64,000 nt of DNA from an uncultured bacterium (GCA_937871295.1 CALMRE010000243.1:1027-65026); one strand, 5' to 3'; counted from the stretch's first letter, positions 9,015-52,529 are shown. Numbers and translations: made by a program. The notes: a model not told the origin generated them from the letters alone.

Positions 9015-9542
9015 ATGAAAGGTTTATCCACGCTTCTTGCCGCGACGCTCTTCTGGGGCATGCTCGCGGCGGCTGATGTCTATGTCAACGGCGTCAAGGC
9101 CGACGGCCTGACCGCGCAGGAATTCAAGGACTGCACGGTCAAATTCGACGACAAGGGAAGCGTCCACATCACCGCTCCGGGCGTCAAACTGCTCTCCGAA
9201 GCGCCGGTCGACCCGGCGAAACTATCGGCGACCTACTTCGTCGCCTTCACCCTCTCCCAGCCGGCCGCGGGGCCGATACGCCTCATCGTCAACGGCACCG
9301 AGGCCGACATCGTCAAACCGGGCGAGAAAACGAAGATCACCGAGATAACGAAGTTCCTGCGCAAGGGGGTCAACAAGGTGCTGGTGATGGCGGGACCCGA
9401 GAAGACCGCCGTGCCGGTGCAGTTGCTCCTCGGCGCCGGGAAGAACAGCGCCGGCAGTCTCGAACTCACCCCCTCGGTCGACAAACTGCTGCAACTCGCC
9501 GACAAGGGACTTTCCGAAACCTTCGACCTTACGGCCCAATAG
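9015..9542 (+). CDS. secreted hypothetical protein
   Basis: GGGAGG SD at 9004-9009 and a signal peptide (MKGLSTLLAATLFWGMLAAADV). Confidence 0.55.
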   Translation: MKGLSTLLAATLFWGMLAAADVYVNGVKADGLTAQEFKDCTVKFDDKGSVHITAPGVKLLSEAPVDPAKLSATYFVAFTLSQPAAGPIRLIVNGTEADIVKPGEKTKITEITKFLRKGVNKVLVMAGPEKTAVPVQLLLGAGKNSAGSLELTPSVDKLLQLADKGLSETFDLTAQ

Positions 9543-9554
9543 GAGGCGACCCGC

Positions 9555-10385
9555 ATGATATTCCCACACCGCATCCTTCCGGCGACGCTCGCCGCGCTTT
9601 TTTTCCTCGCCTGCGCCACCACCGGCGACAAGATGGTCAGCGACGAAACAAAGGGCGACAGTTACTACCAACTCGGCATAGCGGCGCTCAACAAGGGCGA
9701 TCTGGTCAAGGCGAAACTGCAGATCATGAAGGCGATAGAACTGGCGCCGGTGGTCCCCTACTATCATAATCATCTGGGGATCGTGTATCTGCAGGAACGC
9801 GACTTCGACCGCGCTCAGGCCTGTTTCGAACTCGCCTACAAACTTGACGGCATCTATTCCGACGCGCTCAACAACCTCGGTATCCTGTTCCTCATGAAAG
9901 GCGACATCACCAAGGCGAAGGAATACTTCATGCTGGTGCTCGCCGATCAGATATATCCCTATCCGCACTACGCCGAGACCAATCTCGGCCGCGCCTTCCG
10001 GCTGGAGAAGAACTACGCCGAGGCCCAGAAACATCTGGACAAGGCGCTGAAGTTGAAGGGCACTCACTGCGACGCCTACAAGGAACTGGCCCTTATGTAC
10101 GACGAACGGGGGGAACACGAGAAATCGGTGGAGAACTTCCGGAAGACGGTGCAGTACTGCCCGCGCCATGTCGAGGCGCTCTACCGCGGCGCGGTGAAAC
10201 TGCTGGTCCTCAAGGACACCGACACCGGCACCGCGTGGCTGCGGAGCTGTCTGGAACTGGAGCGCGCCAACACCGCCTCGATAGAGATCCCCTTCCTGCG
10301 GGAATGCGCCAATCTCGCGCGGCAGTACGGCGTCGCGCTCAAGGCGGTCGACGACGGCAAACAACAGATAGACGGCGGTTACTGA
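9555..10385 (+). CDS. TPR-repeat lipoprotein (PilF/PilW-like)
   Basis: Lipobox LFFLAC. There are multiple 34-aa TPR-like repeats (YYQLGIAALNKGDLVKAKLQIMKAIEL, YNNLGILFLMKGDITKAKEYF). Confidence 0.65.
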   Translation: MIFPHRILPATLAALFFLACATTGDKMVSDETKGDSYYQLGIAALNKGDLVKAKLQIMKAIELAPVVPYYHNHLGIVYLQERDFDRAQACFELAYKLDGIYSDALNNLGILFLMKGDITKAKEYFMLVLADQIYPYPHYAETNLGRAFRLEKNYAEAQKHLDKALKLKGTHCDAYKELALMYDERGEHEKSVENFRKTVQYCPRHVEALYRGAVKLLVLKDTDTGTAWLRSCLELERANTASIEIPFLRECANLARQYGVALKAVDDGKQQIDGGY

Positions 10386-18011: not shown

Positions 18012-19487
18012 ATGCGAAAGATACTATTCCTGTCGTTCATCCTCGGCGCGCTGATGCTGTCGGCCGCCGAAAAAAACCTCTTCATCGTGACAACCGATAA
18101 GATAGTCGGCTCGTCGGCGAAACTCGCCGAGTTCATCGACGCGAAGGAGGCGCGCGGGTTCACCGTAACGCTCGCCACCGAGAGCGACTACGGCGCAAAA
18201 GACAAGCAGGGCTTCGATCGGGCCGGCGCGATCCGCGCATGGCTCACGGAGAACACCGCACCGGGCGACTATCTGCTCCTCATCGGCGACGCCAACGCGC
18301 AGTACGGCGATGTTCCGATGTTCATCGTCTGGCCGCGCCACACCTACTCGGCCGACCAGTGCTTCGGCTTCGCGGTCGACTGCCGCGCCTTCGAAAGCGA
18401 CGCCCCCTACGCCGACCTCTCGGGCGACTGGGACCTAAACCAGAACGGGCAGTGGGGCGAACACGGGCTCGACGATGGCGTTGGCGGCTTCGATCTCGAC
18501 TACGAACTCATCGTCGGCCGCCTGTCGGTCCATTTCGACGACACGGGCGAACTCGACCGCATCCTCGGTCACGCCCTCGACTACATGCGCGCCCCGCAGG
18601 GTTCCATCGCATGGCGCAAGAAGATACTGCTCCCCGCCTCGTTCTACTATTTCAAGGGTCAGCAGATGCTCTCCTACACGGTGCTTAACGATATGGACGG
18701 GGCCGACACGGCCGAATGGTTCATCTACAATATCCTGTCGCAGCACGGCGGGTTCGATGTCACCCGGATGTACGAGAAGGAGGGGACGACCGTCTCCAAA
18801 TATGCGACCGATGTACCGCTGACGCGCGACAACCTCCAGAGCGAATGGCCGAAGGGCTACGGGATGGTCTTCTGGTTCGGTCACGGGCTCGATAAGGAGG
18901 TGGCGCGGACCTTCTGGAACGACGACAACGAGGACGGCGAAGTGCAGAACGAGGAGTTGCGGCAGCCGCTCTTCATCCACTCCGACGATGCGCCCGCCAT
19001 CGGGGCGCAAAGCCCCGCCTTCGTCGTGGCGGTCTCGTGCGAGGTGGGCAGCGCCCAGACGCCGTGGAACCTGACCCACGCGCTCCTCACCGAGGGGTCC
19101 GCTATCGGGATGATCGGTTCGACCAATGTGACACCGGGCGACATGACCGACTACAGCGATTTCGAGAGCGAACTCGATACCTCGACCTACGGCGCGACCA
19201 ATCTGGGGGTCAATTTCTTCGATGAGTTGATGAACGGGGAGGTAGCGGCCAAGGTCTTCGCCGATGTGCGGCGGACCGTCGGGACCTCTCCCTCCATCGA
19301 GACCTACGCCGGGAAGATGATGCTCAACTACTACGGCGACCCGACCTTATCGCTTAACAGTTCCGCCGCCGACGCGCCGGATGAAGAAATCACCCCCGAC
19401 GAAGATACGGCCACCGACACCGAAACGCCCGACATCGATACCGCCGACAATTCATCCGACGGCGGATGTGCGCTAACATTGTTGTAG
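18012..19487 (+). CDS. peptidase family C25 (gingipain-like) cysteine protease
   Basis: Signal peptide. LLLIGD..., VFWFGHGL and VAVSCEVGSAQ resemble the C25 His/Cys dyad context. The C-terminus ends abruptly (...SSDGGCALTLL) and the stop codon lies inside the TIR of the adjacent palindromic element. Confidence 0.55.
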   Translation: MRKILFLSFILGALMLSAAEKNLFIVTTDKIVGSSAKLAEFIDAKEARGFTVTLATESDYGAKDKQGFDRAGAIRAWLTENTAPGDYLLLIGDANAQYGDVPMFIVWPRHTYSADQCFGFAVDCRAFESDAPYADLSGDWDLNQNGQWGEHGLDDGVGGFDLDYELIVGRLSVHFDDTGELDRILGHALDYMRAPQGSIAWRKKILLPASFYYFKGQQMLSYTVLNDMDGADTAEWFIYNILSQHGGFDVTRMYEKEGTTVSKYATDVPLTRDNLQSEWPKGYGMVFWFGHGLDKEVARTFWNDDNEDGEVQNEELRQPLFIHSDDAPAIGAQSPAFVVAVSCEVGSAQTPWNLTHALLTEGSAIGMIGSTNVTPGDMTDYSDFESELDTSTYGATNLGVNFFDELMNGEVAAKVFADVRRTVGTSPSIETYAGKMMLNYYGDPTLSLNSSAADAPDEEITPDEDTATDTETPDIDTADNSSDGGCALTLL

Positions 19488-19643
19488 GGGCGCGCCAACG
19501 GCACGCCCTGCGTTTTTCAAACACCCACCGACGCTTCGCGTCACCTCCCTGCGACAGGGAGGCACCACGCGGAAGGCCCCCTGATGCAGGGGGCTTGCGG
19601 GGGTGTAGAGTTTAGGGCGTCCCGATGGGAACGCCCCTACAAT
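19482..19643. repeat. 161-bp palindromic MITE/REP-like element
   Basis: An 11-bp perfect terminal inverted repeat, TTGTAGGGGCG at 19482-19492 and CGCCCCTACAA at 19632-19642, with 13 of 15 matching when extended. Two internal perfect hairpins lie at 19544-19562 and 19576-19594. A TTTTT run sits at 19513-19517. Confidence 0.45.
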
Positions 19644-19704
19644 ATTGAATTTCTCCCCTTCCCCGCTATAATCCACCCAACGACCGGACGAAAGGGAGGA
19701 TATC

Positions 19705-21129
19705 ATGAAGCGCGTTCTGGTACCGACGGTGTTTGCGTTACTGCTGATCGCGGGCTGTTCCAGCTCCGATTCTAACGCCACCGACGAAGAGATCGTGAAC
19801 GATACGGCGACTGCCGACGCTGACGCTTTTGATGATCCGACCGATCAGCCTGACCTGAGCGAAGTCGAAGGTTCCGACGACCTGACCGACGACACGCTCA
19901 TCGGGGAGGACGCCGACGAAATGCCCGACACCGACGAGCCGGAATTCCTGTCGGGGTTCGACACGACGGGAAAGACCTGCCTCACCGACATCCCGGAGGG
20001 GCGGATCATCCTCGCGACGGCGAAGGACTATACCGATAGCGAGGCGCCGTGGCGCGTCTATGTGCTGGTCCTGAAAGATGATGGGACGCTCATCGACACC
20101 GGGAGCTATTTCGATACCGACAAAACGCTCGAAGGGATCGGGTTCAACGCGAACGGCCGGCTCGCCGCCGTATCGTCGTGGGATACCGGGTTTGTGACCT
20201 TGTTCGCGCTCGTCGGCCGGACGCTCTGCATCGCCGAAACGGGGATCGTACTCCCCAACCTTGCCGAGAATGAGCGGGTGATCTTCGATCAGATAACAGC
20301 CGACCCCGCCGACCCCTACCGGTTCTATCTCACCTACGGCAACCCGATAACGACCGACCAGTACAGCAATTACTCCGGCGGCATCTACACCATGACGGTC
20401 GACGACACCGGACACGCGACCATCCTGACCGACCACCCGGCGATGCATGTCCCGACCGCCTTCACGCCTCTTCCGGGGGGCACACTGGCGGTCGCACTCG
20501 GCGGGAAAGAGTTCATCCTCGATGAGGGAAGCTCCCTCGGGACGGCGGGCCCCGACGATCTCGCGCTGCTCAGCATCTCAACGAATACGCCGGAGGTGCT
20601 CCAATGGTTCGATGTCTGGGGAACGCCGGGGGCGAACGGATCGGGTCCCTCGGTGAAAAATATCGGGGTCGACGGCGGCGGTAACCTGCTGATAGCGAAT
20701 TCGAGCGAATACGCGGAGGATACGGGGGTCATCAAACTGCTCTCCTATGACGGCGGGACCGGCACCATGACCACACAGGCCGAGTTCCTCGACGCGACGA
20801 ATCTCGATTCGCCCGACTATCTCGTCCTCAACAATGCGGGCGATACGGCGGTGGTGATGAACGGCTATTTCAAGGGGGCGACGCTCGGCATCACCGCCGA
20901 CGCGATCACCTATGTCAAGAAGGAGACGCACGATCTCACGCAGCCGATGATAAAGCTGCACGGGGCGCCGTTCGTGGATCATGTGCTTATCAGTTCGTTC
21001 CACAGTTCGAACGATGAGTCGGGGTCGATAACGATCGCCGAGATAACGGCGGAAGGGCTCGTCGAAGTGTCATCCACTCAGGTGCCGCTCAGCGACAGCT
21101 ACATGCTCGACAACCTGACGGTGCAATAA
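19705..21129 (+). CDS. lipoprotein with an acidic linker, hypothetical (possibly beta-propeller-like)
   Basis: SD AAGGGAGG, lipobox LLIAGC, and a D/E/T-rich N-terminal linker. Confidence 0.6.
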   Translation: MKRVLVPTVFALLLIAGCSSSDSNATDEEIVNDTATADADAFDDPTDQPDLSEVEGSDDLTDDTLIGEDADEMPDTDEPEFLSGFDTTGKTCLTDIPEGRIILATAKDYTDSEAPWRVYVLVLKDDGTLIDTGSYFDTDKTLEGIGFNANGRLAAVSSWDTGFVTLFALVGRTLCIAETGIVLPNLAENERVIFDQITADPADPYRFYLTYGNPITTDQYSNYSGGIYTMTVDDTGHATILTDHPAMHVPTAFTPLPGGTLAVALGGKEFILDEGSSLGTAGPDDLALLSISTNTPEVLQWFDVWGTPGANGSGPSVKNIGVDGGGNLLIANSSEYAEDTGVIKLLSYDGGTGTMTTQAEFLDATNLDSPDYLVLNNAGDTAVVMNGYFKGATLGITADAITYVKKETHDLTQPMIKLHGAPFVDHVLISSFHSSNDESGSITIAEITAEGLVEVSSTQVPLSDSYMLDNLTVQ

Positions 21130-21149
21130 GACCACAGAAATCCCGTCAA

Positions 21150-21169
21150 GCCCCCTTTGACAAGGGGGC
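21150..21169. other. GC-rich perfect hairpin (GCCCCCTT-tgac-AAGGGGGC) at the junction of the lipoprotein gene and the AT-rich segment
   Basis: 8-bp perfect inverted repeat with no following U-tract. It shares the CCCT..AGGG motif with the hairpins at 19544 and 19576. Confidence 0.4.
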
Positions 21170-21191
21170 GGAAGGAAAAATGCCTAGAAAA

Positions 21192-21488
21192 TTAAAAGAG
21201 AAAGCGACTTGCGAGATATATGGCCAAAACAGCCATCACTATATTGGCGACTAGAAAAGTCAACAAGCCCAAACGAAAAAACAAAGTCAGTTTAGAATTT
21301 CGTGAAAACACTCCCAGCGTCACGCATGCTACAACCACAATAAAAGTTTGAGCCGGTGCAGCAAACACAAGCAGGTAATGCATTTGGATATTAGCGATCC
21401 AGAAAGACAGCAGAATATAATCATAAATCAATAACAGGGGAACAACCAAATATGACCATACCCGCGGATCGGGGCGTAAAATACGCAT
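21192..21488 (-). CDS. small 3-TM membrane protein, hypothetical, in AT-rich DNA
   Basis: 98 aa starting at M33 of the track ORF (MRILRPDPRVWSYLVVPLLLIY...). The upstream part of the track ORF is the duplicated malQ tail read through. Confidence 0.4.
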   Translation of the reverse strand: MRILRPDPRVWSYLVVPLLLIYDYILLSFWIANIQMHYLLVFAAPAQTFIVVVACVTLGVFSRNSKLTLFFRLGLLTFLVANIVMAVLAIYLASRFLF

Positions 21489-21531
21489 GAGTTTCGAACG
21501 CTTTTCTTCGTCCACTATTTCACTCGCTGTG

Positions 21532-21612
21532 CTCATTCCGGTTGTAGAGCCACGAGAGTTCGGCGAGTCCCCACGCCGCCTCATCGCGAATATCGTCGTG
21601 CGTGAACCGGAA
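21532..21612. repeat. decayed duplicate of the malQ 3' coding end (direct repeat partner of 23275-23355)
   Basis: About 92% identity over the 81-bp core. Weaker similarity continues on both sides, roughly 21523-21630, and the differences in this copy are mostly G-to-A. Confidence 0.8.
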
Positions 21613-21659
21613 AATCCCGTTATATTGATGAGATACGGTCATTTTGCCCATGTGTTTCA

Positions 21660-21767
21660 TCAATTACCCATCAATTACCAAGATGTCGATGAACCTTATA
21701 AATATTAGCATGTTACCACTGTCCCTGCTGACCATGATCCTTGTTCTGTCAATTACCCATCAATTAC
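21660..21767. repeat. pair of 19-bp perfect direct repeats TCAATTACCCATCAATTAC (21660-21678 and 21749-21767), each with an internal CAATTAC duplication
   Basis: The second copy lies 4 nt downstream of the AlbA_2 gene stop. Confidence 0.7.
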
Positions 21768-21770
21768 TGC

Positions 21771-23237
21771 TCAAGCCCAGAATGGAACATACTTCATAAG
21801 TTTCCTCGCCGCATCTCCATCGAAGGGTCTGATCATACCAGCATCTACCGCCTCGCGAATGTAGCGAGAGATAATAGCCTTGTTCTTTTCTTCCACTCCC
21901 AACCGTTCACGCAATGAGGCGTTGGTTAAGTAATCGCGCATGACCCACTTCAAGCAAGCGTGCAAATAACAAGCCCTTATGCGATCCTCTTTGTCCATGC
22001 GGTTCAACGGCTTGTGCGCAAACAGCACCACTCTGGTGAAATCACCCGAAACATCAGTCAACGGAGCGGGCAGTTGGTAGAGTTCTGTCTGAAAAACCAC
22101 CTTGTCCCAACCACTGCCACGCTCTTCACAGATACCGATACGCCGCATCAGCGAAGCAAGCGATTCGTTTCGCGACTTCGGCGGGGTGTCGACAAAACGC
22201 TGCGCATCCACCAATGGCACCCCCGGATTGGTTATCTCGATACGATCGGAAAAGATTTCGACCATCGGCCCGGCGCCGGTAACAAAGTAGTCTTGATGAA
22301 TAAGGGCATTCGCCACCAACTCGCGGACCGCCAGTTGGGGAAACATCGGAACGGTCTTTCGTAACGCCTGTCCAATCACCTCATTAGAGGGCACCAATCC
22401 ATTGACGAAACCGATCAATCCCTCGAATCCGCAGGCATATCCCTTGCCACCGACCTGTTCTTTGACCGTCTCGACACGGCTTGCGCCTTTATACTGGATG
22501 ACCCGCATCGCTTTGCGCTGAAGTGAGTGAAAATCTTTCAGTTGCTTGGCAAAAAGGATGGCACCCATATTCGTAATGTTCCAACCGCCCGCATCGCAGG
22601 GGCAGATCAATCGGTCCTCAGCCAACGCTTTCAGAATACCGGCACGACCTTCCGGCAACGGTCGCTTGAGCAAATCAAAGTAGGATGGATAGTCAAGCGT
22701 CCGAAGGACATCATCATCGTGCATTCGCTCTGCGGCAATTCCGTCCTCAAATGGAGTGCGATCAAATATACGCCACAACTCCCGTTCCTTTTCCGAGAAG
22801 TCTTTGAGCCGCTTCTTATAAGAACCCACACGGATGTATTCATTGTTCTGGAATTGAACCGGGTGTCTGAATGCTCTGCCGATCTCCAATAATACGGTAT
22901 GCTTTCCCTCCATGTCGATCTCATGGAAACGGAAGGTTATCTTCGGCGTAAGAAGCTTCAGAAGCCAGTTCTCTAACTCTTCGTTACCGACCTTCGTTTT
23001 TGAGGGAAAGAATGTTGTTCCCACGACCTCATGCGTGGAATCGACAACTCCCCACAGCAAATATGCGTTGGCTTTGCCACACAATGCGGCGGAATTAGAA
23101 AGGGCCGAAATATATTCTCCCAGTTCTTGTGGTTCGGCATAATTCATCTTAAATTCTACCCATTCAATCTCTTTGGGCAGTTTGAGAAGTTCGCCGAGCA
23201 AACTTATTAAATATTCTTGCCCCCGATCACTCGGCAT
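21771..23237 (-). CDS. AlbA_2 (Schlafen-like divergent AAA) + HATPase_c_4 domain protein, of the kind often annotated as a putative transcriptional regulator or RecG-related ATP-binding protein
   Basis: Started at M64 of the track ORF (MPSDRGQEYLIS...), the ATG at 23235-23237. EIEWVEFKMNYAEP...AALCGKANAYLLWGVVDSTHEVVG matches the AlbA_2 pattern. RELVANALIHQDYFVTGAGPMVEIFSDRIEITNPG matches HATPase_c_4. The gene lies in AT-rich DNA. Confidence 0.7.
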   Translation of the reverse strand: MPSDRGQEYLISLLGELLKLPKEIEWVEFKMNYAEPQELGEYISALSNSAALCGKANAYLLWGVVDSTHEVVGTTFFPSKTKVGNEELENWLLKLLTPKITFRFHEIDMEGKHTVLLEIGRAFRHPVQFQNNEYIRVGSYKKRLKDFSEKERELWRIFDRTPFEDGIAAERMHDDDVLRTLDYPSYFDLLKRPLPEGRAGILKALAEDRLICPCDAGGWNITNMGAILFAKQLKDFHSLQRKAMRVIQYKGASRVETVKEQVGGKGYACGFEGLIGFVNGLVPSNEVIGQALRKTVPMFPQLAVRELVANALIHQDYFVTGAGPMVEIFSDRIEITNPGVPLVDAQRFVDTPPKSRNESLASLMRRIGICEERGSGWDKVVFQTELYQLPAPLTDVSGDFTRVVLFAHKPLNRMDKEDRIRACYLHACLKWVMRDYLTNASLRERLGVEEKNKAIISRYIREAVDAGMIRPFDGDAARKLMKYVPFWA

Positions 23238-23262
23238 TCTTGCCCTCCCCCTACAATGAATC

Positions 23263-24768
23263 CTATTTCTCGTCGTGCTCGTTCCGGTTGTAGAGCCACG
23301 AGAGTTCGGCGAGTCCCCACGCCGCTTCGTCGCGGATGTCATCGTGCGTGAACCGGAAGGTCCAGTTGTGGAGCCCCATCGTCCCCGGCGTATTGAACCG
23401 CGCCTCAGACCCCATCCCCAGCACATCCTGCATCGGCATCACCGCGTACTGCGCCACACTCCCGTAGGCAAGCCGGATGAGCGCCCAAGCGGGGCTATCG
23501 CCCCACCGCAGGCCGAGATAACGGTTTATCTCCCGACGGTCGTGCTCGTAGATGGAGCGATACCACCCCATCACCGTGTCGTTGTCATGCGTCCCGGTGT
23601 AGACGGCGCAGTTGGTGGTCGTGTAGTTGTGCGGCAAAAAGGCATTTTCGGGCGCGTCGAATCCGAATTGGAGCACCTTCATTCCGGGGAAACCGAAGTG
23701 CTCGCGCAGTTCGACCACATCCTCCGATATGACGCCGAGATCCTCGGCGATGACCGGCAGTTCGCCGAAATGTGTTTTAAGCGCGTCGAAGAGTTTCTTG
23801 CCGGGGCTCTTTTTCCATTTCCCGTTCACCGCCGTTTCATCGCACGCGGGCACCGCCCAGCACGCCGCGAAGCCGCGGAAGTGATCGATGCGGACGATGT
23901 CGAAGAGTTTGAACGACTGCGCGAAGCGCCTCTTCCACCAGTCGAAACCGTCCTCCTCCATCCGCTTCCAGTCGTAGAGCGGGTTGCCCCACAACTGGCC
24001 GGTCGGCGAGAAGTAGTCGGGCGGCACCCCCGCGAGGAAGGTCCGCTTGCCGTTCTTGAGGAGAAAATAGTCCTGATGGGCCCAGACATCCACGCTGTCG
24101 AACGAAACGAATATCGGGATGTCGCCCACGATGCGGATGCCGCGTTCGTTGGCGTATCTCTTGAGCGCCCCCCACTGCCGGTGGAAGAGCCACTGGATGA
24201 ACTGGTGGCGCAGGATATCGTCGGCCGATTCCTGCATGAAGCGGGCGAGCGACGCCGGACGCCGCTCCCGGAACTCTATCGGCCACTCGTGCCAGCAGGT
24301 GGTGCCGAACTTCTCGCGGAGCGCCGCGTAGAGCGCGTAGTCGCCGAGCCAGTGGCTGTTGTCGGTGCGGAACTTCGCCATCTCGTCGAACCGGTCGCGC
24401 GTTTTCTGAAAAGTCGCGAAAGCGGCCCGCAGCAACGCATCGGAGAGATCGCGCGCACTATCGAAGTTGACCCGGCGCGGATCGGGCGCCGGGACCTTGA
24501 AGGGTGATGCGTCGGCGATAAGTCCCTCTTCCGCGAGGGTGTCGGCGTCTATCAGCCACGGGTTCCCGGCGAAGGCCGAATGTGAATTGTAGGGACAGCC
24601 GTCGTAGGAGGTGGGGGTGAGCGGCAGTATCTGCCAGAGCGTCTGCTTGCCGGTGGCCAACCAGTCGACGAACCGGCGCGCCGCATCGCCGAAGGTGCCG
24701 ATGGGGCCGGGGCCGGGCAGGGCCGCGGGGTGAAGAATGATGCCGCTGGAACGATGAAGAGTGGTCAT
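23263..24768 (-). CDS. malQ: 4-alpha-glucanotransferase (amylomaltase, GH77)
   Basis: 501 aa. GIILHPAALPG...QILPLTPT...NPLYDW is typical of MalQ. Confidence 0.9.
   Translation of the reverse strand: MTTLHRSSGIILHPAALPGPGPIGTFGDAARRFVDWLATGKQTLWQILPLTPTSYDGCPYNSHSAFAGNPWLIDADTLAEEGLIADASPFKVPAPDPRRVNFDSARDLSDALLRAAFATFQKTRDRFDEMAKFRTDNSHWLGDYALYAALREKFGTTCWHEWPIEFRERRPASLARFMQESADDILRHQFIQWLFHRQWGALKRYANERGIRIVGDIPIFVSFDSVDVWAHQDYFLLKNGKRTFLAGVPPDYFSPTGQLWGNPLYDWKRMEEDGFDWWKRRFAQSFKLFDIVRIDHFRGFAACWAVPACDETAVNGKWKKSPGKKLFDALKTHFGELPVIAEDLGVISEDVVELREHFGFPGMKVLQFGFDAPENAFLPHNYTTTNCAVYTGTHDNDTVMGWYRSIYEHDRREINRYLGLRWGDSPAWALIRLAYGSVAQYAVMPMQDVLGMGSEARFNTPGTMGLHNWTFRFTHDDIRDEAAWGLAELSWLYNRNEHDEK
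23275..23355. repeat. native malQ 3' end, the direct-repeat partner of 21532-21612
   Basis: Contiguous with the malQ body; see the repeat at 21532. Confidence 0.8.
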
Positions 24769-46172: not shown

Positions 46173-46970
46173 TTAGTAGCAGTAGCCCTGAATGCAGGGC
46201 TGGCCCGAACAGCAGGTATCGTTCTCGGAGCATACTTCGCCGGCCGGGATGCACTCCTTCGCGTTGAGAAGCATTAGCGCCGACCCGGTGTTGCAGGTGG
46301 TGGTGTTCTCGTAGCAGAGCAGGTCGCCGGTCTTGCATTCGAAGCACTTGGCGTTCGGATCGGTCGAATTGTAGGTCTGGCACTTGGTCTCGCCCACCTT
46401 GCAGGCGGCCGGGACGCACTGGGTGCCGCCCATGTACACTTCGCCCTGCTTGCAAATGCCGCAGGTGGCAAGAGCCGCGGTGGCCATGCACTTGAGGGCG
46501 GTGAAACCCTTGTCGGCGTAGCAGCAGCCGGCGGGGCAACTGGCCTCGCTGCAGGCTCCGCTCGAGGCGGTGGCGTTCACGCAGCGGCCGAGTTTGGTAT
46601 TACAGGTGGTGCCGGCGAAATTGGCGCAGTCGGCGGCGCTGGCGCACCCGGCGGCGCACTTCGCGTTGACGCAGATGAGCGGGGTCCCGCATTCGGTGTC
46701 GGTCTTGCAGTTCTTGCCGATATTCGGGCTGTCGATGTCGGACACTTCGGTGTCGGTGACCGGATCGTCGGTGACCGGCTCATCGCTGTCGGTGACCGGC
46801 GTGTCGGTGACCGGCGTATCGGTGTCGGGCAACTGGTTATCGGGTTTCACCGTGTCGGTGTCTCCGATGACGGTGGTGTCGGTGGTGATGATGTTCGGAT
46901 CCTCGGCGGAACAGGCGAGGACGAACAGGGCCATCAGGAACATCGCTGCGATGAACGCCGTTTTCTTCAT
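46173..46970 (-). CDS. lipoprotein with a DTPVTD acidic repeat linker and a Cys-rich C-terminal domain
   Basis: From the ATG at 46968-46970, preceded by GGAGG. Lipobox VLACS and about 36 Cys residues. Confidence 0.6.
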   Translation of the reverse strand: MKKTAFIAAMFLMALFVLACSAEDPNIITTDTTVIGDTDTVKPDNQLPDTDTPVTDTPVTDSDEPVTDDPVTDTEVSDIDSPNIGKNCKTDTECGTPLICVNAKCAAGCASAADCANFAGTTCNTKLGRCVNATASSGACSEASCPAGCCYADKGFTALKCMATAALATCGICKQGEVYMGGTQCVPAACKVGETKCQTYNSTDPNAKCFECKTGDLLCYENTTTCNTGSALMLLNAKECIPAGEVCSENDTCCSGQPCIQGYCY

Positions 46971-47515
46971 TGTATGACCTCCATACTGTGAAATAACATC
47001 AAGCATGATGTAGCGCGACTATAGCACAAAAGCAACAGATTTCAACTATTTTTTTGGTGTTTTGAGATGAAGTGTTTGATTTTATTAGGCCTGCGGCATT
47101 TTTAAGCTCTTTTCTCACGCACGCACCCTCAAAATGCACACACAAAACGGTACAAACATACTTTAGACCGCACTCCCGGAAAAAAAGTTCCGGTAAAAAA
47201 AAGAGAGTTTTTTTCTTGACAAGAGCCGCCGGTACACGATAAGCACAGCGCGGAACTATTCTGTGGGATGGGTGGCCCCGGTGTATCGCGCTATCATGCC
47301 TCTTTTTTTCATTACCGTTCTTTTCTCGACCGAGTTCCGCAGCATCTTCCAGACCGACGGAAAAACATACTATGCCGTTGTTTTTTCTCTTAGTTTCTCG
47401 GAAGACCCGGAGGAAAAAAGAGTCGTCGTGCCCGAACTGCTACGTGAAAATTCCGTCTATCTTTCGATACAGGAAGCGATGTACATCAGGAACCGACTTG
47501 AGGAGATACTGGACG

Positions 47516-49973: not shown

Positions 49974-51197
49974 ATGAGAAAACTGCTCGTGAGCTACGCG
50001 CTCGACCCCCAGACACTTATTCCGGTCGGCCATCTGGCCGAGTCGGAGGGACGGGTGTTCTTTGAGTACGATCCTTCGTTCATCGAACGGGGCGTCGAAC
50101 TTTCGCCCTTCTTTCTGCCGCTCAAACCGGGACTCGTCGAACATACCGACCGGGGCTTCGGACCACTGTGGGGGGTATTCGACGATTCCCTTCCCGACGG
50201 CTGGGGGCTTTTGCTGATGGACCGCTATTTCCGGAAACGCGGACTCTCATTGCGGACCATTTCACCGCTCGACCGGCTCGCGTTCCTCGGTATGCGGACG
50301 ATGGGAGCGCTCACCTATCACCCACCGGCGGAACGCGACGAAGAGACCCACCGGACGCTTGATCTGCAAGAACTCGCGGAACAGTCGCTGAAGATACTGA
50401 ACGGCGAAGAATCGGTCGTTCTCTCTCAACTTCTCGCCGCCGGCGGCAGTCCCGGCGGAGCGCGGCCGAAGGTGCTCGTCGGCTATGACCCCCGAAAAAA
50501 AGCGTTGCTGTCGGGAGAAGCTCTTCTGCCGGAGGGGTATGAACACTGGCTGGTGAAATTCGGGGCGAAAGAGGACCCGGCCGATAGCGCGGCGATAGAA
50601 TTTGCCTATGCGCTGATGGCGCGCACCGCCGGTATCGCGTTGCCCGAGACGCGACTCTTAAGCGGAGGCAGAACGGAACGCTATTTCGGTAGCAAGCGCT
50701 TCGATCGCGATGCGCGGAACCGCCGTTACCACATACATACTTTCGGGAATCTGGTCCACGCCGACTTCCGCATACCATCGGTCGATTACACCGAACTTCT
50801 GCGGGTCACCGCCCTCATGACGCGTGATCAGAGCGCCGTCCGTGAGATGTTCCGCCGGATGGTGTTCAATGTCTTGGCCCACAACCGCGATGACCATGTG
50901 AAAAATTTCTCGTTCATGCTCGACCTTGATCAACCCGGCTGGCGCGTGTCGCCCGCCTACGACCTCACTTTCGCCGAAGGACCGGGAGGCGAGCACAGCA
51001 TGAGTGTCGACGGCAACGGAAAAGCTCCGGGGGTGCCGGACATTTTCCGGGTCGCCGAAAAAAGCGGCATCGGGAAGGCGGTCGCACGCCGTATCGTCGA
51101 TGAGGTGGCGGCGGCGGTCGGGCAATGGGCGCGGTTCGCCGACGAGGCGGGCGTCTCCAAAGGTTCAATGAAGAACATCGCCAAGTACTTGCAGTAA
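49974..51197 (+). CDS. hipA: HipA-family serine/threonine kinase toxin
   Basis: P-loop-like GGSPGGARPKVLV and catalytic loop LAHNRDDHVKNFSFMLD, which is the HipA D-x-H-x-K-N motif. Confidence 0.8.
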   Translation: MRKLLVSYALDPQTLIPVGHLAESEGRVFFEYDPSFIERGVELSPFFLPLKPGLVEHTDRGFGPLWGVFDDSLPDGWGLLLMDRYFRKRGLSLRTISPLDRLAFLGMRTMGALTYHPPAERDEETHRTLDLQELAEQSLKILNGEESVVLSQLLAAGGSPGGARPKVLVGYDPRKKALLSGEALLPEGYEHWLVKFGAKEDPADSAAIEFAYALMARTAGIALPETRLLSGGRTERYFGSKRFDRDARNRRYHIHTFGNLVHADFRIPSVDYTELLRVTALMTRDQSAVREMFRRMVFNVLAHNRDDHVKNFSFMLDLDQPGWRVSPAYDLTFAEGPGGEHSMSVDGNGKAPGVPDIFRVAEKSGIGKAVARRIVDEVAAAVGQWARFADEAGVSKGSMKNIAKYLQ

Positions 51198-51259
51198 ACT
51201 TCTTGCCTTAGATATCGCCGGTGCTATAATCACGGCATCGTCCTTTTGTACTAGGAGAC

Positions 51260-51910
51260 ATGATGGAAGATCGATCCGAAGACAAACGCAATCGCGGTAA
51301 GACATTTTTATATCTGGTTCTCTGTGTCATTTTCTTTCTTGGTGTCTATTTTCTCTTTTTTACCGAAAAAGATAGAATCATCAGCGCAGTTAGGAGAGGC
51401 GATGTTCAGACGATCAAGGCAATGTTAGAAAGCGGGACTGACCCCAATACAATATATACGCCTTTTTTGGGAACGATTACGAAGAAACAGTATCTTGAAA
51501 AGAACTTCTCATTACTAATTTTGGCTATAAGGAACAATAATAACACTTACGAAACAACGAAAGTTCTGCTGGAACATGGAGCCTCCATAGCTAACACTAA
51601 ATCCCCAGGTAGTTCCATTTTGTACTTTGCCTTTGCCAATCTCGATGTGGTCAAGTTGTTGGTGTCATACAATGCCGATCCTTTGATGAAAGATAGGCAT
51701 GGTAACAATTTATTACATGTGATGCCATGGAATCTAGCTCAATTTCCGGAACAACTTAAGGTTGCGAAGTATTATATCGACGCAGGTGTCGATCCTTTTT
51801 CTAAAAACAATTCCGGGCAAGAAGCATTGGCCAGATTAAAAGAAATGCATGCGCAGGCACATCAAATGTTGCTGGATTATATAGCAAGCAAGAAAGGCAC
51901 CGCAAAATGA
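51260..51910 (+). CDS. ankyrin-repeat protein with an N-terminal TM helix, in markedly AT-rich DNA
   Basis: 2 to 3 ANK-like repeats (KLLVSYNADPLMKDRHGNNLLHV; YYIDAGVDPFSKNNSGQEAL). Its GC content is visibly far below that of its neighbours. Confidence 0.6.
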   Translation: MMEDRSEDKRNRGKTFLYLVLCVIFFLGVYFLFFTEKDRIISAVRRGDVQTIKAMLESGTDPNTIYTPFLGTITKKQYLEKNFSLLILAIRNNNNTYETTKVLLEHGASIANTKSPGSSILYFAFANLDVVKLLVSYNADPLMKDRHGNNLLHVMPWNLAQFPEQLKVAKYYIDAGVDPFSKNNSGQEALARLKEMHAQAHQMLLDYIASKKGTAK

Positions 51911-52001
51911 ATTGCTTTCATCCCCGGCGGTAGTGAACCGTCCAGCGGCCGCCGCGATGAAGTCACACCTTGCATGACGAAGCGCCCGCTTCAAAAAAAA
52001 C

Positions 52002-52029
52002 TTGATTTTTGTCCTACCCTCAATACAGT
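52002..52029 (+). promoter_or_regulatory. putative sigma70 promoter of the tRNA operon
   Basis: TTGATT, a 16-nt spacer, then TACAGT, with an upstream A8 tract. The -10 ends 13 nt before tRNA-Pro. Confidence 0.35.
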
Positions 52030-52042
52030 CGAGCCCGCTACA

Positions 52043-52119
52043 CGGGGTGTAGCTCAGCTGGCTAGAGTGCTTGCTTTGGGAGCAAGTGGCCGGAGGTTCA
52101 AGTCCTCTCACCCCGACCA
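52043..52119 (+). tRNA. tRNA-Pro (anticodon TGG)
   Basis: Cloverleaf with acceptor CGGGGTG/CACCCCG, anticodon loop TTTGGGA, and an encoded CCA. Confidence 0.85.
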
Positions 52120-52122
52120 GCT

Positions 52123-52199
52123 GTGCCCGTAGCTCAGTTGGATAGAGCAACTGACTTCTAATCAGTAGGCCAGAGGTTCGATTCCTCTCGGGCACGCCA
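52123..52199 (+). tRNA. tRNA-Arg (anticodon TCT)
   Basis: Acceptor GTGCCCG/CGGGCAC, anticodon loop CTTCTAA, and an encoded CCA. Confidence 0.85.
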
Positions 52200-52224
52200 G
52201 GTTGTTTTTTCACATTGCGAGTAT

Positions 52225-52300
52225 GGTGGGTGTAGTTCAATGGTAGAGCACCGGATTGTGATTCCGGGCGTTGTGGGTTCGAGTCCCATTACCCACCCCA
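52225..52300 (+). tRNA. tRNA-His (anticodon GTG)
   Basis: Extra G at -1, anticodon loop TTGTGAT, discriminator C, and an encoded CCA. Confidence 0.85.
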
Positions 52301-52308
52301 TTTTTGGT

Positions 52309-52384
52309 GGGCCCTTAGCTCAGTTGGTAGAGCAACTGACTCTTAATCAGTGGGTCGAAGGTTCGAATCCTTCAGGGCCTACCA
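52309..52384 (+). tRNA. tRNA-Lys (anticodon CTT)
   Basis: Acceptor GGGCCCT/AGGGCCT, anticodon loop CTCTTAA, and an encoded CCA. Confidence 0.85.
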
Positions 52385-52444
52385 TCCATATTTCAAGCGT
52401 ACATTCCCCATCGATAGATACCGAACGGCAAAAATTCGGTCGTT

Positions 52445-52529
52445 GCGAGAGTGGCGGAATTGGCAGACGCACTGGACTTAGGATCCAGCGGGTAACACCT
52501 TGGGGGTTCGACTCCCCCCCCTCGCACCA
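52445..52529 (+). tRNA. tRNA-Leu (anticodon TAG), class II with a long variable arm
   Basis: GCGAGAGTGGCGGAATTGGCAGACGC 5' end, anticodon loop CTTAGGA, a long extra arm, and an encoded CCA. Confidence 0.85.

Follow-up and report, generated by a model that had tools for sequence, protein, structure and literature searches.

The window analysed here is a stretch of 64,000 nucleotides of metagenome-derived DNA from an uncultured bacterium (GCA_937871295.1 CALMRE010000243.1:1027-65026); all coordinates are counted from its start. Its subject is the interval between malQ and a convergent Peptidase_C25 gene, where the 3' end of malQ occurs a second time. The 1.65 kb separating the two malQ ends consists of a single gene, encoding a protein with AlbA_2 and HATPase_c_4 domains, and its regulatory flank, and of nothing else. 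The comparison of both malQ ends, of the intervening gene and of the corresponding loci in related genomes led us to conclude that the duplicated end is most likely the by-product of a recombinase-free insertion of a fragment of a restriction-modification (R-M) operon. The features of the locus are as follows, from malQ towards the Peptidase_C25 gene; repetitive extragenic palindromic elements are abbreviated as REP, open reading frames as ORF, the hydrophobic ORF with three predicted transmembrane segments as 3TM ORF, and GC content at third codon positions as GC3.

23263-24768, minus strand: malQ, 4-alpha-glucanotransferase of family GH77, 501 aa, ending in ...NRNEHDEK* (PF02446, E 3e-169); one wall of the interval
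23269-23367, minus strand: repeat copy 1, functional 3' end of malQ, with two private synonymous substitutions (GAT, GAA) and a unique tip
23248-23256, minus strand: remnant head of a GTAG-headed REP-like hairpin, TTGTAGGGG, between the malQ stop and the ribosome-binding site of the AlbA_2 gene
21622-23262: newest layer, the AlbA_2 gene with a downstream paired-repeat module, from comparison with R-M operons
21771-23237, minus strand: intact AlbA_2 (Schlafen-type) and HATPase_c_4 gene, 488 aa, GC 50% (PF04326 and PF13749)
21749-21766, minus strand: operator-like site 1, TAATTGATGGGTAATTGA, two TAATTGA half-sites with an 11-nt period, 5 nt past the AlbA_2 stop
21660-21677, minus strand: operator-like site 2, the same 18-mer, 89 nt downstream of site 1
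21613-21651, minus strand: 13-codon stub of an unrelated ORF, MGKMTVSHQYNGI, read from the sequence as an in-frame fusion to malQ copy 2
21523-21621, minus strand: repeat copy 2, by allele comparison a displaced intact malQ tip, ending in ...NRNEHSE* (stop codon 21520-21522)
21192-21488, minus strand: 3TM ORF, a called hydrophobic ORFan of 98 aa, GC 41%
21138-21176, both strands: 39-nt hairpin element with its stem at 21150-21169, a terminator-scan match, 39/39 identical in the related locus L087
19705-21129, plus strand: lipoprotein-like gene, 474 aa, GC 61%, GC3 80%, no Pfam match
19482-19642: cluster of REP-like hairpins, GTAG-headed at 19482-19508 (plus) and 19615-19642 (minus), with two more GC hairpins in between
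18012-19487, plus strand: Peptidase_C25 gene (PF01364), convergent to malQ; the other wall of the interval

An initial annotation of the window had described an AT-rich insertion at the malQ 3' end, with an AlbA_2/HATPase_c_4 gene and a gene for a 98-aa protein as cargo. The former was confirmed at 21771-23237 (minus), and the latter as a hydrophobic ORF at 21192-21488 (minus). The AT-richness is also real: GC content is 41% in the 3TM ORF, 38% in a 149-nt intergenic stretch and 50% in the AlbA_2 gene. The flanks, given there as about 65% GC, lie at 61-63%, and the window as a whole at 60.9%.

The recurrence of the malQ terminus, the central observation of that annotation, holds. The copies at 21523-21621 and 23269-23367 are identical at 88 of 99 nt (blastn E 1e-32), and the 81-nt core originally indicated is identical at 75 positions (92.6%) and holds a 44-nt exact block; this is the sole long dispersed direct repeat within the 64 kb. 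The weaker similarity said to extend on both sides of the core was not confirmed beyond about 9 nt per side. Copy 2 retains the malQ frame and reads FRFTHDDIRDEAAWGLAELSWLYNRNEHSE, with 27 conserved codons and the HSE tip, and copy 1 terminates in ...NEHDEK. Within the 27 codons common to both copies, all six nucleotide differences are synonymous, an outcome that six random substitutions in this segment would give with P of 6e-5 to 2e-4. When the differences were polarised against the functional malQ genes of six relatives, one private state was found in copy 2 and two in copy 1. With its stop codon and the following AATA included, copy 2 matches the end of the functional malQ in the related loci L003 and L088 over 106 nt at 94% identity, and it is 94% identical to the malQ end of L096; its nearest allele is that of L003, whose malQ shares the HSE*-AATA ending. 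The HDEK tip of copy 1 was found in no other of the 14 clade alleles inspected.

Decay in place would have affected all codon positions, and faster than in the copy under selection. The opposite was found, which argues that the two copies did not diverge in place. The exclusively synonymous differences and the smaller number of private changes in copy 2 indicate instead that the copies diverged inside functional genes of different lineages and were joined by recombination. By these allele comparisons, copy 2 is the undamaged tip of another malQ allele and no decayed duplicate. Two parts of the initial annotation are not borne out. Its AT-decayed pseudo-terminus has an intact malQ frame, one substitution absent from the functional malQ genes of relatives, and only synonymous differences in the core. 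Its statement that almost all differences are G-to-A holds for just 4 of the 6 core differences and 6 of the 11 over 99 nt (A in copy 2 against G in malQ, plus strand), and two run the other way.

The relatives used for comparison are loci of uncultured metagenome-assembled genomes, some labelled Spirochaetales, whose malQ is 70-91% identical to that of the window (L001-L006, L087, and L096). Sampling of this clade is very sparse. Within it, MalQ is hypervariable over its last 3-7 residues, for which six types of tip were found (ERQE, EHSE, GTQE, EHDEK, NSEQRSE, and NKAE/G), and the distribution of these types does not track the gene phylogeny (proteins P0121-P0125 and P0241-P0250; window positions 23263-23280). 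Recurrent recombination at the extreme end of the gene, or illegitimate joints there, could have produced such a pattern. At the other end, the first 90 nt of the window malQ (24679-24768) are L003-like, with 6 differences to L003 and 20 to L001, and the remainder is L001/L087-like; by its pattern of substitutions this 5' patch is a clear mosaic of homologous recombination. The L003-like patch and the non-phylogenetic distribution of the tips show that homologous recombination exchanges malQ segments among these lineages.

In L096 the interval is empty: the TAA of malQ lies 1 nt from the stop of the convergent Peptidase_C25 gene, and synteny with the window is kept on both sides (window 26108-24924, 24768-23280, and 19474-16453). 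The whole of window 19488-23262 (3.8 kb), the lipoprotein-like gene included, is therefore material that has accreted and is dispensable. The empty site that the initial annotation suggested looking for in relatives thus exists, with the difference that its junction is that of malQ with Peptidase_C25 and that the lipoprotein gene, taken there as the native neighbour of malQ, is itself cargo and is absent from every relative's locus. Besides L096, seven relatives each hold a different AT-rich cargo in this place (GC 41-50% versus 59-63% for their loci overall). A single gene for a 204-aa secreted protein is present in L003, and a gene for a Cys-rich lipoprotein bracketed by two inverted 39-nt hairpin elements in L087. 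L004 carries genes for a HIT-domain protein and a 555-aa protein, L002 a lipoprotein gene and YoeB/YefM (a toxin-antitoxin pair at L002 4512-5092), L097 VapBC (9510-10135), and L099 two small ORFs. The toxin-antitoxin pairs in L002 and L097 suggest that the site is inclined to gather defence- or addiction-type genes. Relative to L096, the window has at least three insertion layers. The comparison thus bears out both the foreign nature of the cargo, which is absent from relatives, missing from the empty site and AT-rich (38-50% GC versus 61-63% in the flanks), and the suggestion of a hotspot with successive insertions. On this evidence the interval between malQ and Peptidase_C25 is a hypervariable slot for cargo in this uncultured clade.

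Chromosomal hotspots flanked by core genes and lacking mobility genes were reportedly described by Oliveira, Touchon and Rocha in 2017, and exchange through both flanks of such hotspots is normally scarless. The malQ locus resembles them in that one interval holds, in each lineage, a different AT-rich cargo that is partly of defence type (toxin-antitoxin pairs and an R-M-linked gene) and is empty in one lineage. It differs in keeping the scar of a one-sided event. Since exchange at hotspots usually leaves no trace, its mechanism is normally guesswork; the scar kept here, with two tip alleles, an in-frame illegitimate junction and the empty site of a relative, makes an acquisition in an uncultured lineage reconstructable.

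The newest layer of the slot carries the AlbA_2/HATPase_c_4 gene. In its protein, PF04326 covers residues 23-144 and PF13749 residues 321-405. At least 8000 homologues match it over the full length (100% coverage) with 72-77% identity, from Chloroflexi, Gammaproteobacteria, Nitrospirales, Acidobacteria, Desulfobacteria, and others, suggesting that the gene has been widely transferred. The usual setting of the homologues is an R-M operon of type I or type IIG, where the gene lies between hsdS and hsdR in L080, L083, L089, and L092, after hsdR in L084, between hsdM and hsdS in L095, and before the gene of an MmeI-like type IIG enzyme in L090; the plasmid homologues in L093 and L094 have no annotated hsd or restriction neighbours. 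In the window, the gene stands alone, with malQ upstream, a malQ-tip stub and an ORFan downstream, and no hsdM, hsdS or hsdR adjoining.

DNA homology to the R-M operons runs from about the ribosome-binding site of the AlbA_2 gene through a conserved downstream module. This module consists of the 18-mer TAATTGATGGGTAATTGA at +5 from the stop codon, a spacer (about 70 nt) whose core reads GTAAC..TTGAATA, and a second 18-mer that begins at +94 and is identical to the first at 18 of 18 positions (two exact copies in the window versus 0.03 expected). The 18-mer at +5 is also found in L080, L089, L090, and L092. The paired-site module is complete in these four, partial in L083 and L084, and present with altered half-sites in L094 and L095. 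In the homologues, 10-25 nt separate the second 18-mer from the start codon of the gene that follows it (hsdR, hsdS or the MmeI-like gene). Where the homologues have the start of hsdR (ATGACC...), the window has ATG ACC and 11 further codons of an ORF that was not matched to a family, and this stub enters malQ copy 2 in frame at 21613-21622. The stub has no homology to malQ except for a patchy microhomology, AAC.GGA..TTCCGG.

With homology to the operons from the ribosome-binding site to just beyond the module, and with a boundary inside an ORF, the insert is an excerpt of an R-M operon joined to a malQ end of the clade's type and a REP remnant, and its far boundary is, from the alignment, an arbitrary point within a gene. 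The idea that the cargo is a module of a mobile element is not supported by this content. Genes such as prrC and rloC are known as 'restriction-linked' genes inside type I R-M operons, and the position of the AlbA_2 gene in its homologues is like theirs. The window gene shares with such R-M-embedded modules of the COG2865 type the two Pfam domains, full-length identity of 72-77%, and the paired-repeat module. It differs from them in lacking hsdM, hsdS and hsdR beside it and in having, at the position of the restriction gene, a 13-codon stub fused to a malQ tip; a piece of an R-M operon is thus seen travelling alone. PADLOC detected no known defence system at the locus, merely weak partial matches to Argonaute-associated SIR2-PNTD models.

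The stub and the displaced tip together form a chimeric ORF of 43-47 codons (21520-21663, minus) composed of MGKMTVSHQYNGI and the last 30 malQ codons, which sits where the restriction gene usually starts. The 3TM ORF begins 31 nt past it, and both may be expressed from the putative promoter of the module. A sigma-70 promoter scan gave no match in the spacer of the paired sites. Rfam returned nothing credible over 19400-23500, and the predicted RNA fold of the intergenic stretch is no better than that of shuffled sequences (z +0.6); an RNA element is thus unlikely. Neither integron attC nor dif/Xer sites fit the locus, and neither do terminal inverted repeats or short target-site duplications: the 18-mers are direct repeats, both lie downstream of the gene, and inverted ends are lacking.

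The layout of the paired sites is kept across phyla and in distant homologues, with two half-sites per site, an 11-nt period, and the sites 78-89 nt apart. The half-site is TAATTGA in homologues of more than 72% identity, ATTTGA in that of Burkholderia (66%), TGCTTGA in that of a Providencia plasmid (60%), and TGCTTCA/TGTTTGA in that of an Aliarcobacter plasmid (58%). This co-variation of half-site and protein is the pattern expected of a protein that binds its own downstream operators around the promoter of the restriction gene. We hypothesise that the AlbA_2/HATPase_c_4 protein may control the restriction gene through the operator pair encoded with it. C-protein control exists in type II R-M systems, and the control proposed here would by analogy resemble it. 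DNA binding by the cargo protein is part of this hypothesis. Pfam found no helix-turn-helix in the C-terminal 142 aa, and the N-terminal domain is the one part that AlphaFold models with confidence; the model is unreliable past residue ~145 (pLDDT, the model's per-residue confidence score, is below 50 over most of 227-437). The predicted C-terminal order helix-helix-helix-strand-strand would be compatible with a winged helix (pLDDT below 65). A search of viral contigs with the 17-mer of the operator gave four single matches, which is at chance level, and none had an AlbA_2 gene nearby. A prior description of the paired module was not found in the literature searched. The comparison thus exposes an operator-like module for an extremely widespread, uncharacterised Schlafen-like family and offers a hypothesis for the role of this family in R-M operons.

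The structure of the locus is explained best, in our view, by homology-facilitated illegitimate recombination (HFIR) anchored on the malQ tip, a reading drawn from the sequence comparisons to which we give a probability of roughly 45%. The ancestral order was probably malQ (ending in HSE*), 3TM ORF, hairpin element, lipoprotein-like gene, and Peptidase_C25 gene. A linear fragment from a related lineage would then have been taken up, bearing the donor's malQ end (...HDEK*), the REP remnant, and the R-M operon excerpt, namely the AlbA_2/HATPase_c_4 gene, the promoter region with its paired repeats and 13 codons from the start of the following gene. One end of the fragment would have recombined homologously inside malQ, and the other would have entered the recipient's malQ through an illegitimate joint 99 nt upstream of its stop codon. 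As a result, malQ would have remained whole with an imported tip, the old tip and old cargo would have been shifted downstream, and the 99-nt direct repeat would have been left behind. The duplicated malQ end would be a by-product of this last insertion, and the malQ sequence most likely acted as a homology handle, not as the attachment site of an integrating element. From this arrangement we infer that copy 1 was imported and copy 2 is native, that the donor DNA was linear, and that the event depended on RecA.

The two ends of the insert agree with such an event. At the homologous end, copy 1 is continuous with malQ and belongs to an allele distinct from the recipient-type copy 2. At the illegitimate end, the junction at 21613-21622 falls 13 codons into an unrelated ORF, with short and patchy microhomology. 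HFIR has been described for natural transformation (Acinetobacter, Pseudomonas stutzeri, and Streptococcus pneumoniae) and for E. coli conjugation (PMC3240628). The locus shares with those cases a single homologous anchor (the 3' region of malQ), an illegitimate other end with patchy microhomology, the lack of a dedicated recombinase, and foreign DNA caught beside a conserved gene. It differs in that the event is deduced from one natural scar, and in that the anchor homology continues downstream past the illegitimate joint, with the result that the tip was duplicated, not deleted.

A sequential displacement of gene ends with retained 3' remnants has been proposed for the type VI secretion (T6SS) effector-immunity arrays in Vibrio cholerae, with HFIR as the mechanism (PMC5361080). 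The orphan tips of T6SS, Rhs, and CdiA genes are alike in that a conserved gene gains a new 3' tip with cargo while the old tip and its cargo are displaced as orphans, in that the tips vary among relatives irrespective of phylogeny, and in that HFIR has been proposed there too. The host gene here, however, is the housekeeping GH77 gene malQ, the variable tip comprises 3-7 codons and encodes no toxin domain, and in place of a toxin-immunity pair there is an R-M-associated AlbA_2 gene or an ORFan as cargo. The type of event, a homology-anchored trapping of foreign DNA that displaces the old tip of a gene, is thus already known, and the malQ locus is a well-preserved example of it. Once in place, the cargo could be excised precisely by recombination across the 44-nt block, which would restore malQ (HSE*).

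Several observations weigh against HFIR. A donor with the order malQ (HDEK*), REP, AlbA_2 was absent from the genome, metagenome and protein collections searched, in which this clade is very thinly represented, as were any further malQ (HDEK*) allele and any malQ next to an AlbA_2 gene; and no relative was found in which malQ (HSE*) lies directly before the 3TM ORF. Exact look-ups with the AlbA_2, 3TM and MalQ proteins of the window returned no entry, and hence no near-identical strain. A metagenome scan with the conserved malQ tip returned four contigs, of which three duplicate known relatives and one, L087, is new; neither a donor nor a malQ followed by the 3TM ORF was among them. A mosaic breakpoint upstream of copy 1 was sought by sliding identity and by the density of private substitutions, and no step appeared at the malQ 3' end. 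The imported anchor would thus have to be short or to come from a close relative. In addition, the 44-nt identical block would equally suit a site-specific core or a single crossover, HFIR presupposes competence and RecA in a host that is an uncultured, metagenome-derived lineage, and the structure is read from the sequence of one contig.

The alternative that fares best is a single Campbell-type RecA crossover with a circle made of a malQ-tip fragment and the AlbA_2 module, or a larger single-crossover duplication that was later trimmed by a deletion with one end inside the gene that follows the module and the other 99 nt ahead of the second malQ stop. It is of the same kind as HFIR, driven by homology and free of a recombinase, and differs in route; we regard it as rather unlikely. 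A flanking direct repeat is exactly the product expected of it, and the 44-nt identical block was available for the exchange. A long donor-type tract is missing upstream of copy 1, as a small circle with short homology predicts, and this fits a short anchor under HFIR and a single crossover alike. The crossover requires, however, a circular intermediate of unexplained origin or an additional deletion, and 99 nt of homology with just 44 identical nt is a poor substrate for RecA. HFIR and a single crossover are indistinguishable from the present sequence.

Less probable is the interpretation given by the initial annotation, in which the two malQ ends are the attachment sites attL and attR of an element that integrates at the malQ 3' end. 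Such an element would have lost its integrase, or would never have had one and would depend on mobilisation in cis or in trans. In Streptococcus thermophilus, ICESt1 and ICESt3, which are integrative and conjugative elements, and the cis-mobilisable elements (CIMEs), their integrase-less derivatives, integrate at the 3' end of fda. The malQ locus is similar to these in the direct repetition of the target's 3' end, in the intact gene and in the possible accretion of cargo. The AT-rich cargo and its stacking at one site would also suit an integrative element, as would the 44-nt identical core, although such a core is equally expected of two alleles of a conserved coding segment. The empty, attB-like site in L096 demonstrates insertion and is silent on its mechanism.

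The recombinase that attachment sites would call for was not found. Pfam identified no integrase or transposase among the ORFs of the window slot, as the initial annotation had itself noted, nor a recombinase in the tested ORFs of other AT-rich islets of the window, and the slots of the eight related loci examined (including L002, L003, L004, L087, L096, L097, and L099) contain no integrase or transposase. The boundaries of the repeat do not recur either: a second malQ tip is absent from all 12 related loci, and the cargo of relatives begins directly past the malQ stop codon, away from the repeat boundary. Unlike the arms of ICESt1, ICESt3 and the CIMEs, those of the malQ locus are two malQ alleles, and features of element ends are missing. 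The 1.65 kb between the repeats is wholly one gene of an R-M operon with its regulatory flank, the distal boundary falls within an ORF, as an in-frame fusion, and not at the end of an element, and malQ homology flanks the putative core on both sides, which an attP would not need. We therefore consider the attachment-site interpretation unlikely and unsupported, and the locus illustrates that a duplicated gene 3' end does not necessarily imply an integrase-driven element.

A broader and equally improbable proposal combines the insertion with the putative operators. The malQ tip, the AlbA_2 gene and the paired-operator promoter would together form a recombinase-free 'tip cassette' of 1.75 kb with a portable switch. 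RecA could release it as a circle across the 44-nt block, and the circle or a linear copy could re-enter relatives through their malQ tip. The AlbA_2 protein and its operator pair could act as a portable transcriptional switch that now controls the displaced tip and the 3TM ORF after rewiring. If this were true, conserved gene ends would be portable landing pads for defence-linked cargo without mobile-element machinery, and the AlbA_2 switch would normally gate the expression of restriction genes.

An assembly chimera, in which the cargoes of two co-existing strains were joined through a common malQ tip and both tips would never occur in one genome, is very improbable. The window does come from a single metagenome-derived contig (65.8 kb), the tips are different alleles, and the 44-nt block could serve as a repeat in the assembly graph. 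Assemblers join sequences only through shared k-mers, though, and the junction at 21613-21622 ties the unique sequence of the module straight to a malQ tip; a molecule that fuses the two must therefore exist, and a strain swap would be possible only downstream of the 44-nt block. Hardly credible is a tandem duplication of the malQ end in situ with later insertion of cargo and AT-biased decay of the redundant copy. It would account for the same-strand direct repeats and the slightly lower GC content of copy 2 (59.6% versus 62.6% in copy 1), but copy 2 has only synonymous differences, fewer private changes than the functional copy and 94% identity to the functional alleles of relatives.

The material beyond copy 2 would belong to older layers of the slot. 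The 3TM ORF has no match in Pfam or PADLOC and no homologue among 5.8 billion proteins, and it is absent in all relatives; it may be older cargo or, the DNA being T-rich, a hydrophobic ORF that is spurious. The hairpin at 21150-21169, which the initial annotation took as the left edge of the insertion, is perfect, with an 8-bp stem, and is part of the 39-nt element that the terminator scan picked up as terminator-like on both strands. As the edge of an insertion it does not hold up, since the element recurs in L087 around a different cargo. It is 39/39 identical to the L087 copies (at L087 379-412 and 1187-1220, against window 21142-21175), although the flanking genes are only ~90% identical. 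In L087 the stop codons of both core genes enclose exactly the cargo gene and the inverted pair of elements around it. The element is, from this comparison, a resident feature of the slot. It could be a terminator cassette or a recombination substrate.

The 474-aa lipoprotein-like gene next to it has no Pfam match and no paralogue in the window and is missing from the loci of all relatives. Judged by this distribution, it too is slot cargo, despite its native-like composition.

REP-like hairpins with a conserved TTGTAGGGGCG head stand at gene ends in this clade (L001 509-519, L002 5075-5102, L087 1232-1259, and the window copies), and heads of the GTAG type are typical of RAYT-associated REPs. 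The 9-mer TTGTAGGGG of the remnant past malQ also opens the full REP after the malQ stop in L087 and the window REPs at 19482-19508 and 19615-19642. The element at 19615-19645 recurs immediately past the L087 malQ stop and is also present in L002, and the hairpin at 19482-19508 overlaps the stop codon of the Peptidase_C25 gene.

Elsewhere in the window, a second AT-rich islet (49974-52529, GC 40-48%) contains an ankyrin-repeat gene (51260-51910), with a HipA-family kinase gene (49974-51197) on one side and five clustered tRNA genes (52043-52529) on the other. No recombinase was found among the ORFs tested in it, and it is probably another acquisition site. GC content also dips to 48% at about 46800-47400, where two ORFs without a Pfam match are located, and short tandem repeats of 15-21 nt (GTCGGTGACCGG...) occur at 46731-46830, inside an ORF at 46173-47006 (minus).

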